DNA of 64,000 bases from IMG/VR virus record IMGVR_UViG_3300028666_000026, positions 1 to 64,000 of that record. The stretch is one strand, 5' to 3'. Positions 24,361-24,558 of the stretch are shown here, in pieces. Each line of letters opens with the position of its first letter. Within the stretch, counting starts at the first letter, position 1. Position numbers and translations under genes: made by a program. The notes beneath the pieces were generated by a model. It was not told where the DNA came from. It made no database searches and worked only from the letters and a program-made list of their open reading frames with translations. Origin of the DNA: a virus.

Positions 24361-24558
24361 CTACTGTTGTGTGGTTGAATCGTTGGCGTGCAAAGCACCA
24401 TCCACTTGCGCGGAAATGGTGTTGAAGGCCGTGTTGATTTCGGTGCTCAGGCTGCCGATTGCAGCCACCGCGCCGAAGGCCAACATGGCCACGAGAAGTG
24501 CGTACTCCACTAAGTCTTGCCCTGACTGACTTTTGAATCTGTTCATAACTTCCTCCAT
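24361..24558 (-). CDS. Flp/Fap family type IVb pilin-like protein
   Basis: FKSQSGQDLVEYALLVAMLAFGAV ... LSTEINTAFNTI aligns with Flp prepilin G/xxxxEY motif and C-terminal TAF motif. Confidence 0.75.
   Translation of the reverse strand: MEEVMNRFKSQSGQDLVEYALLVAMLAFGAVAAIGSLSTEINTAFNTISAQVDGALHANDSTTQQ

Follow-up and report, generated by a model that had tools for sequence, protein, structure and literature searches.

A phage-encoded Flp/Fap-type prepilin with a conserved assembly half and a remodeled C-terminal tail in a phage probably infecting soil Acidobacteria

We analyzed a 64,000-nucleotide (nt) stretch of viral DNA, positions 1 to 64,000 of the IMG/VR record IMGVR_UViG_3300028666_000026 (hereafter, the window), with a focus on a short minus-strand open reading frame (ORF) at 24361-24558. 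An initial annotation, made from the letters of the sequence, had proposed that this ORF encodes a homolog of the Flp/Fap pilins that build Tad pili. Our analysis supports this proposal: the product is almost certainly a true Flp-family prepilin, encoded in the genome of a phage that carries a Tad subunit rather than a Tad system. The family is a familiar one, the phage genomic setting is new, and the remodeling of the protein is specific, affecting its leader and its C-terminal tail.

Identity of the pilin gene

The Pfam Flp_Fap profile (PF04964), a search proposed as a check in the initial annotation, matched the phage pilin at positions 3-45 of its 46, with a score of 31.8 bits and E=1.2e-7. 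Lying 0.4 bits under the curated gathering cut-off of 32.2, the score counts against the assignment, and family membership is therefore based on the E-value together with strong homologs. PF04964 is also assigned to the 61-amino-acid (aa) form of the protein in the precomputed annotation of the protein collection. A profile made from the first 14 homologs matched the cryo-electron microscopy structures of Caulobacter Tad pilins in the PDB (8u2b, E=4e-6; 8u1k, E=1e-5); in this match INTAFNT of the phage pilin was aligned with LRTAFTK of Caulobacter PilA, in agreement with the earlier remark on a TAF segment. Among 5.8 billion proteins searched, Flp/PilA pilins with 47-70% identity were recovered, and another search that started from the nearest relative, P0002, added 230 homologs, many of them named "Flp family type IVb pilin" from Terracidiphilus sp. 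or Candidatus Sulfotelmatobacter sp. Altogether, hundreds of pilin homologs were found at 60-80% identity.

The Flp/Fap Tad pilins, which are type IVb/c pilins and include Caulobacter PilA, Aggregatibacter Flp1, and the Terracidiphilus proteins, have in common with the phage copy a class III signal peptide, the processing motif G/xxxxEY with Glu5 and Tyr6, a hydrophobic helix of ~20 residues, an (I/L)NTAF segment, and a single-helix fold without a globular domain. In the phage pilin, the motif (Gly at -1, Glu at +5, Tyr at +6) is present as S-G/Q-D-L-V-E-Y. The string G9-Q-D-L-V-E14-Y15-A-L (residues of the phage pilin are numbered in its 61-aa form) was invariant in an alignment of 14 sequences (A1), and across 71 unique cellular sequences (44 aligned residues) the positions of G-QDLVEY-AL were 97-100% conserved, with Gly, Gln, Asp, Val, Glu, and Tyr of the processing site invariant and Leu at 97%. 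Hence, careful alignment retained the Gly/x4/Glu-Tyr site on which the first reading had relied. The helix ALLVAMLAFGAVAAIGSL has a mean hydropathy of +2.33, and leader and tail are polar. AlphaFold2 modeled the pilin as one helix (residues 7-60) with a mean predicted local distance difference test score (pLDDT) of 84.7, exceeding 90 over residues 11-50 and dropping to 54 in the final ten residues. A Foldseek search of the PDB with this model gave no matches, a lone helix being an uninformative query; scans of the pilin against NCBIfam and PHROGs v4 gave no match and no family at E<=10, respectively. All sequence-level features that define the Flp/Fap family, namely, profile match, motif, helix, and a small mature size without a globular domain, were found in the phage pilin.

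The ORF translates into MEEVMNRFKSQSGQDLVEYALLVAMLAFGAVAAIGSLSTEINTAFNTISAQVDGALHANDSTTQQ, which contains the stretch SQSGQDLVEYALLVAMLAFGAVAAIGSLSTEINTAFNT quoted in the initial annotation. Its first ATG (24558-24556) is not preceded by a Shine-Dalgarno sequence and itself overlaps one, and independent gene calls in two public assemblies start at the second ATG, yielding the 61-aa product P0001. Because GGAGG precedes the second ATG and gene callers use this codon, translation likely starts at 24546 and gives a product of 61 aa. Thus, the position, strand, and sequence reported earlier stand, whereas the product length of 65 aa should probably be reduced to 61 aa.

The phage-borne location is evident from the surrounding genes. 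Minus-strand genes of the window encode a DNA polymerase A, a primase, an SNF2 helicase, a PD-(D/E)XK nuclease, dCTP-deaminase-like and ligase-like proteins, and a methyltransferase; genes for small and large terminase, portal, a Mu-F-like protein, and a 1417-aa protein are on the plus strand. The flanks of the window contribute genes for a major capsid protein and for Pa193/E217-like structural proteins, and tail genes also belong to this phage context. The ENA contig ERZ27245386 k141_12260, with a length of 105,390 bp, and the window are co-linear, and the window reads across the contig ends with an offset of ~141 bp, corresponding to the assembler k-mer. The phage map is therefore circular, and the genome is complete at ~105.25 kb. 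A Logan contig is 100% identical to the window, and the recovered public contigs match at 99.99-100%; since these contigs appear to be the same genome, the public copies represent one observation of one phage. In a set of 50,697 GenBank phages, megablast with the 4-kb neighborhood of the gene found no match, and tblastn with the phage pilin and with Caulobacter PilA found no meaningful match; the only tblastn match, to an Enterococcus phage at E=0.5, was judged spurious.

It is extremely improbable that the ORF is a chance frame or host DNA mis-joined to a phage contig. An artifact of this kind would be in line with the small size of the ORF and with a Pfam score slightly under the gathering threshold. 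It is effectively refuted by E-values of 1e-7 to 1e-30 against independent profiles and proteins, by same-strand phage genes flanking the pilin for tens of kilobases on both sides, and by the same arrangement on public contigs from ENA and Logan (the protein cluster also cites a JGI source), together with the circular map.

Remodeled ends around a conserved core

Unlike the known Flp/Fap Tad pilins, the copy described here is encoded by a phage without tad machinery or a peptidase gene nearby, and it deviates from them at both ends. Its positively charged leader of 9 aa is the shortest complete one, compared to 16-21 aa in 117 of 129 gene-called homologs. The predicted mature length of 52 aa makes it the sole outlier among the 129 gene-called homologs, 128 of which have 43-44 aa; this length is also found in 127 of 146 ORFs from fetched loci. 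The sequence SAQVDGAL of the phage tail is in frame with the ancestral SSDLASSL, has the same length, and keeps the final Leu; beyond this ancestral end, the reading frame continues for nine codons, giving the polar extension HANDSTTQQ (24364-24390, past the ancestral stop position). At five of the six tail positions 37-42, the residue of the phage pilin occurs in 0-6% of cellular sequences, and at the sixth in 15%. A frameshift origin of the tail was considered and rejected, as the other two 3' frames, read by eye, lack SDLASSL and the tail aligns in frame. Because these frames do not recover the ancestral end, the altered tail is ascribed to substitutions and loss of the stop codon.

On the DNA level, similarity to cellular genes (70-76%) is confined to nt 24-126 of the gene, extending from the cleavage site to INTAF, and no similarity was detectable in leader and tail. 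The 36-residue core starting at Gly-1 is 81% identical to Terracidiphilus/Acidobacteriaceae pilins. Within this core, the proportion of nonsynonymous differences (pN) is 0.16-0.20, compared with a saturated proportion of synonymous differences (pS) of 0.60-0.79, which corresponds to a ratio of nonsynonymous to synonymous substitution rates (dN/dS) of about 0.1-0.17, a constraint that holds somewhere along the lineage and is not assignable to the phage branch alone. Judged from these substitution patterns, the assembly half is kept by selection somewhere along the lineage, and, given the saturated synonymous sites, either the capture was not recent or the donor is unsampled.

The helix of the phage pilin has Leu9, Met12, and Ile21 at positions where 92-97% of cellular sequences have Val, Leu, and Met. 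These conservative exchanges (V9L, L12M, and M21I) occur together in only one other protein among 283 homologs, the phage-like copy P0002, which is identical to the phage pilin in 27 of 28 residues from Gly-1 to Thr26; the pilin is short, so that phylogenetic resolution is low and the shared signature amounts to three positions. P0002 is carried by 22 short contigs, none longer than 4.4 kb, that stem from at least five samples, and its neighbors are always small ORFs packed tightly on the same strand, with no Tad genes among them. The genes upstream of it are constant (113, 188, and 78 aa; contigs L180-L185), and those downstream vary (a 105-aa, a 169-aa, or a 144-aa DUF7717 protein). Three of these neighbors match PHROG families of unknown function (E=3e-8, 8e-12, and 2e-16), and none resembles anything in the window. 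Attempts to extend the contigs yielded nothing in a scan of IMG/VR and only one 2-kb contig in a scan of metagenomes. P0002 is probably a phage-borne Flp pilin as well, and its locus has the appearance of a mosaic junction within a phage family not known so far.

Acidobacterial-type Flp genes were also detected on six IMG/VR contigs. On one of these (L090), the Flp gene is situated 1.8 kb from a large terminase gene; on a second (L088), it is beside genes for a 3'-phosphoadenosine-5'-phosphosulfate reductase, an HD hydrolase, a methylase, and a chaperonin; on a third (L089), it follows a tail-fibre J-like gene at a distance of 2.5 kb; those besides these three are ambiguous. Pilin genes thus recur on phages of the phylum Acidobacteria in unrelated genomic backgrounds. 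This recurrence, together with the presence of the nearest family member, P0002, on a mobile, phage-like element, favors a selected function over an accident. A separate observation concerns a Flp homolog on a 134-kb IMG/VR contig (L087, 7923-8159), whose leader carries an insertion of 14-16 aa (RVPGPPRTGLSPWGAE). The insertion resembles a short repeat, the translation of which (…PRTGLS.WG…) recurs in several frames nearby, and is probably a repetitive extragenic palindromic (REP)-like element.

Putative host, genome context, and expression signals

A scan of one genome per species found at least 426 relatives of the phage pilin, the best 80 of which all belong to Acidobacteriota, overwhelmingly to Acidobacteriaceae and Terracidiphilus metagenome-assembled genomes. 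The homolog P0006 is part of a tad locus with the order T2SSF (TadB/C), PilZ, RcpC, secretin, DUF192, and Flp (L002 and L004). RcpC, secretin, or T2SSF genes were found by BLAST within 8 kb in 42 of 89 fetched loci, and the remaining 47 loci contain orphan pilin genes without machinery within this distance; at least 4 of the fetched Flp loci come from a single chromosome of 6.7 Mb. In 4 loci, Flp is adjoined by ORFs of ~170 aa that combine numerous hydrophobic segments with a GxGDVK motif and which we infer to be A24 prepilin peptidases. Since the homologs adjoin Tad machinery and A24-like ORFs, the putative host clade has the machinery needed by the phage pilin, which bears on the suggestion of the initial annotation to look for a tad locus in the host. 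From the similarity of the pilins, the host is probably a member of the soil Acidobacteria (Terracidiphilus/Acidobacteriaceae). Many genomes of this clade have several Flp genes, some of them far from tad machinery, and thus a stand-alone pilin gene feeding machinery encoded elsewhere is normal in Acidobacteriaceae. The phage copy resembles these orphan and multiple paralogs in its distance from tad machinery but lacks their canonical leader and mature length of 43-44 aa.

Another feature of the acidobacterial tad loci is a second Flp gene in tandem, directly downstream of the first (L002 and L003), which is directly followed by genes for a GT2 and one or two GT87 glycosyltransferases, the latter being periplasm-facing membrane proteins (L002, from 9087-9875 onward; L003, 3534-7042). 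GT2 homologs are located near Flp in 29 loci. Because these genes directly follow the tandem Flp genes, their arrangement suggests that Ser/Thr-ended acidobacterial pilins are glycosylated; the phage tail likewise has a Ser/Thr-rich end (DSTTQQ).

Domain information covers ~79 kb of the phage genome of ~105.25 kb. Besides the pilin gene, the window contains no Flp-like ORF, and no other match to the Flp hidden Markov model, no homolog of Tad machinery, and no A24-type GxGD[V]K ORF was found in the window plus 16 kb of extra flanks; Tad genes were also absent from the precomputed Pfam lists of the flanks. With no TadV or machinery gene in the ~79 kb, the phage must rely on the Tad system of its host. 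The same region revealed no integrase or repressor, and because the phage possesses its own replication apparatus, it is probably virulent.

The pilin gene lies directly behind a copy of a conserved early motif, as described initially. This 22-nt block, C(T/C)TAAACCGGCTAGTTTATAAT, has four copies in the window (Table 1), all on the minus (early) strand and 9-15 kb apart, and each is followed, after 25-45 nt, by a start codon that has a GGAG-type ribosome-binding site. Its 11-mer core TAGTTTATAAT has 3 exact occurrences, compared to 0.23 expected from shuffles. The motif includes a perfect TATAAT and was missed by a sigma-70 consensus scan. As it has no -35 element at the canonical spacing of 16-18 nt, we refer to it as promoter-like only. 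It presumably acts as a promoter, for which a phage factor may be needed, and it may represent a phage-specific class of early or middle promoters. A 14-nt palindrome, GGCGCAGCTGCGCC, between motif and ribosome-binding site is unique in the window and was rejected as a signal, since 57 of 100 shuffles had at least one match, which is not beyond chance.

No terminator was found after the pilin gene, and the next small ORF begins 45 nt downstream with its own ribosome-binding site. Neighboring genes code for a DUF4326 protein, small zinc-ribbon proteins, and a nucleotidyltransferase. From the motif upstream and the lack of a terminator downstream, the pilin gene seems to open an early or middle operon running into the zinc-ribbon ORFs and the RlaP-type nucleotidyltransferase gene.

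Table 1. Features of the phage pilin gene and copies of the promoter-like motif in the window
Feature	Position	Strand	Description	Basis
Flp/Fap-type prepilin coding sequence	24361..24546	minus	favored start; 61 aa plus stop	61-aa gene calls, Pfam Flp_Fap, PDB profile match
Mechanical ORF of the pilin gene	24361-24558	minus	65 aa from first ATG	
Shine-Dalgarno sequence GGAGG	24552..24556	minus	5 nt before second ATG (24546-24544)	read from sequence
Leader peptide MNRFKSQSG	24520..24546	minus	9 aa with Arg3 and Lys5; ends in Gly before predicted TadV cleavage site	alignment with invariant G/QDLVEY
Conserved assembly half of mature pilin	24448..24519	minus	QDLVEY (Glu5, Tyr6) and hydrophobic helix ALLVAMLAFGAVAAIGSL	invariant columns, hydropathy, AlphaFold2
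Remodeled C-terminal tail	24364..24411	minus	AQVDGALHANDSTTQQ	residue frequencies, mature length, DNA similarity, pLDDT
Motif copy before the pilin gene	24581..24602	minus	CTTAAACCGGCTAGTTTATAAT; TATAAT at 24581-24586	
Second motif copy	35429..35450	minus		alignment of copies
Third motif copy	15431..15452	minus	upstream of 254-aa ORF 14632-15396	
Fourth motif copy	982..1003	minus		alignment of copies

Several further features of the phage genome were recorded. An 870-aa protein encoded at 19178-21790 (minus strand) contains major-vault-protein domains (MVP_shoulder, E=8.5e-23; Vault_3, E=5e-11), belongs to no PHROG family, and has full-length homologs at 50-62% identity on three IMG/VR contigs; a vault-like shell protein is unusual in a phage early region. 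The RlaP-type nucleotidyltransferase (RNA-repair pathway) is encoded at 22347-23381 (minus strand; phrog_388, E=1e-80) and has homologs on 79 IMG/VR contigs, many of them from genomes of ~170 kb. It is kept across very different phages, whereas its neighbors are not. At the divergent junction of the early and structural modules, ARAGORN and Rfam (RF04321, 77.8 bits versus a gathering score of 47) detected a permuted (two-piece) transfer-messenger RNA (tmRNA) at 40265-40585 (plus strand), which could be useful for host assignment. It is situated beside tRNA-Gln (39904-39976) and tRNA-Thr (39997-40072) genes; a tRNA-Met gene is located at 11277-11351 (minus strand). The head module includes, at 45914-47215 and 50265-52277 (both plus strand), an Alt-like ADP-ribosyltransferase exotoxin-like protein (PHROG 3895/802; Pfam ADPrib_exo_Tox) beside the Mu-F-like protein, and its portal protein has an extra C-terminal domain (Pfam InPase; DarB-like PHROG matches). 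Both are probably injected effector domains. Finally, a GATase_6+ADDT protein, a dCTP-deaminase-like protein, a NUDIX protein, and a protein with a dGTP_diPhyd_N domain (L173, 19879-21512; window, 5273-5866, minus strand; L001, 13648-13998) suggest remodeling of the nucleotide pool or hypermodification of DNA bases.

Possible roles of the phage pilin

The mature Tad pilin of Caulobacter comprises 45 aa and forms a single amphipathic helix, with the N-terminal end directed to the center of the filament and the C-terminal end directed outward (PMC11067988). The receptor-binding Mat protein of phage PhiCb5 possesses a pocket that takes up the pilin's C-terminal end (PMC11067988). Mapped onto this structure, the phage copy keeps the buried parts that serve processing and polymerization and changes the exposed parts. 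The roles put forward in the initial annotation, namely, poisoning or remodeling of pili for exclusion, or incorporation into pili, would be compatible with this anatomy. The explanation that we tentatively favor, considering it possible rather than probable, is that the phage pilin remodels or poisons the Tad pili of the host and thereby masks a receptor or excludes other phages. A prepilin gene would have been captured from a host-type tad locus by a probably virulent Acidobacteriaceae phage and placed at the head of an early transcription unit. The prepilin would enter the inner membrane, where a TadV/CpaA-type peptidase of the host is predicted to cut after Gly9. The mature pilin of 52 aa would then join the host pilin pool, with its conserved N-terminal half engaging platform and ATPase. 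As its outward C-terminal end is rewritten and nine residues longer, pili might either be re-surfaced and bulkier or be stalled by a poison subunit. Loss or masking of the pilus receptor could exclude superinfecting pilus-dependent phages, spare the progeny from adsorption to infected cells and debris, or both.

Several points weigh against this interpretation. The proposed function is derived from sequence features, the steps beyond these are deduced, and a link of this phage, or of the phages of its host, to a Tad-pilus receptor is likewise assumed. The leader of the phage pilin is unusual, and cleavage by TadV is not guaranteed. P0002 has a canonical tail (SSDLASSL), a mature length of 43 aa, and a 16-aa leader, and therefore a rewritten tail is not general to phage-borne copies. 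The host assignment is drawn solely from the resemblance of the pilins, and a permuted tmRNA of uncertain origin is encoded by the phage as well. Moreover, the inspected ~79 kb are part of a genome of ~105.25 kb. Lastly, none of the 82 IMG/VR loci of related phages, fetched via the neighboring nucleotidyltransferase and the vault-like protein, contains a Flp ORF, so that the gene might be dispensable, recent cargo.

This last observation is also what one would expect of a host fragment carried as a passenger without a selected role, or of a generic single-pass membrane peptide, such as a modulator of holin and antiholin or a membrane depolarizer. In the related loci, synteny is almost absent otherwise as well, the early region shows pronounced mosaicism, and the closest relative (L170) ends before the position of the pilin gene; the phage itself represents a single independent observation, and its pilin has no PHROG family. 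Such a passenger seems unlikely to us, considering that the core is conserved while synonymous sites are saturated, which argues against both a recent acquisition and a decaying gene, and that the gene has an intact processing motif, its own ribosome-binding site, and a promoter-like motif. In addition, a second phage-like lineage keeps a Flp gene. The pilin had no holin match in Pfam or PHROGs and is not encoded in a lysis cassette, lying ~7 kb from a weak holin-like match at ~17354-17638.

Retention of all assembly determinants and purifying selection on the core would also fit a fully competent additional subunit by which Tad pili are sustained or promoted, in the manner of a classical moron. 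An infected or lysogenic cell would then stay attached or aggregated in a soil biofilm and release progeny near its kin. P0002 and the IMG/VR copies are canonical pilins with 40-44 aa in their mature form, and the copy downstream of tail fibre genes on L089 occupies a typical moron position, both of which are compatible with this scenario. We nevertheless assign it a low probability. The lack of an integrase or repressor in the ~79 kb and the own replication machinery of the phage suggest virulence, the gene is under the control of a putative signal common to other early operons rather than part of an independent host-like cassette, and neither the rewritten and extended tail nor the short leader would be expected in a simple extra copy.

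Conservation of exactly the N-terminal half might alternatively reflect a membrane signaling decoy, an idea that we regard as quite unlikely. Here, the unpolymerized pilin, processed or unprocessed, would act in the inner membrane through its N-terminal segment on host sensors of the pilin pool and either lower pilin expression or rewire cyclic di-GMP signaling and the cell cycle. The idea is purely analogical, we know of no such pilin-pool sensor in Acidobacteria, and the 9-residue periplasmic or surface tail would be left unexplained. Precedents come from Caulobacter, in which inner-membrane PilA monomers are an input signal for PleC and cyclic di-GMP-dependent cell cycle initiation (PMC7196804), from a pilin-PilS feedback in Pseudomonas aeruginosa, cited in PMC13060843, and from the early phage protein PIT4, which acts on PilS/FleS and reduces the expression of pilA and flp (PMC10714779).

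The outcome proposed under the favored remodeling or poisoning of Tad pili has functional, if hypothetical, parallels. Aqs1 of phage DMS3, Tip of D3112, PfsE of Pf4, and PIT4 of LSL4 are small phage proteins, at least some of them early, that disable the type IV pilus receptor (PMC13060843, PMC10714779). They act on Pseudomonas type IVa pili via the PilB motor ATPase, the PilC platform, or sensor kinases (PMC13060843, PMC10714779). These inhibitors are not pilins, whereas the protein described here is a homolog of the filament subunit, and its target would be the Tad pilus; the scans of PHROGs (E<=10) and NCBIfam gave no sequence relation to any of the four. The proposed role is also reminiscent of Llp of phage T5, a phage-made envelope lipoprotein that binds FhuA, blocks the phage's own receptor, and thereby prevents superinfection and loss of progeny on debris. 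In the present case, by contrast, masking would be brought about by substituting or poisoning the receptor's own subunit.

In a broader and somewhat unlikely version of this idea, soil phages exchange Tad pilin "cassettes" as structural mimicry, in which the buried interface is kept and the outer end is rewritten, so that the phage subunit co-polymerizes with the Flp of the host, giving the pilus another surface or jamming it. If this were true, the L9/M12/I21 signature of the two phage-borne copies would represent an adaptation of the helix to a role in a poisoned or hetero-polymeric filament. Subunit substitution would then be mechanistically apart from the described phage inhibitors of pili, which address motors, platforms, or regulators.

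Tad pili are widespread organelles of adhesion and surface sensing and known phage receptors. In the full-text literature searched, we came across no phage-encoded pilin of the Flp or Tad type, and every phage countermeasure against type IV filaments described there was a non-pilin inhibitor. If the proposed mechanism is true, the phage pilin would represent a new means by which a virus alters a surface structure of its host, and a peptide of 61 aa might serve as a handle for manipulating Tad pili. To our knowledge, almost nothing is known about the phage biology of Acidobacteria, an abundant soil phylum. For a 105-kb phage lineage without cultured relatives, the pilin points to Terracidiphilus/Acidobacteriaceae as a lead to the host.

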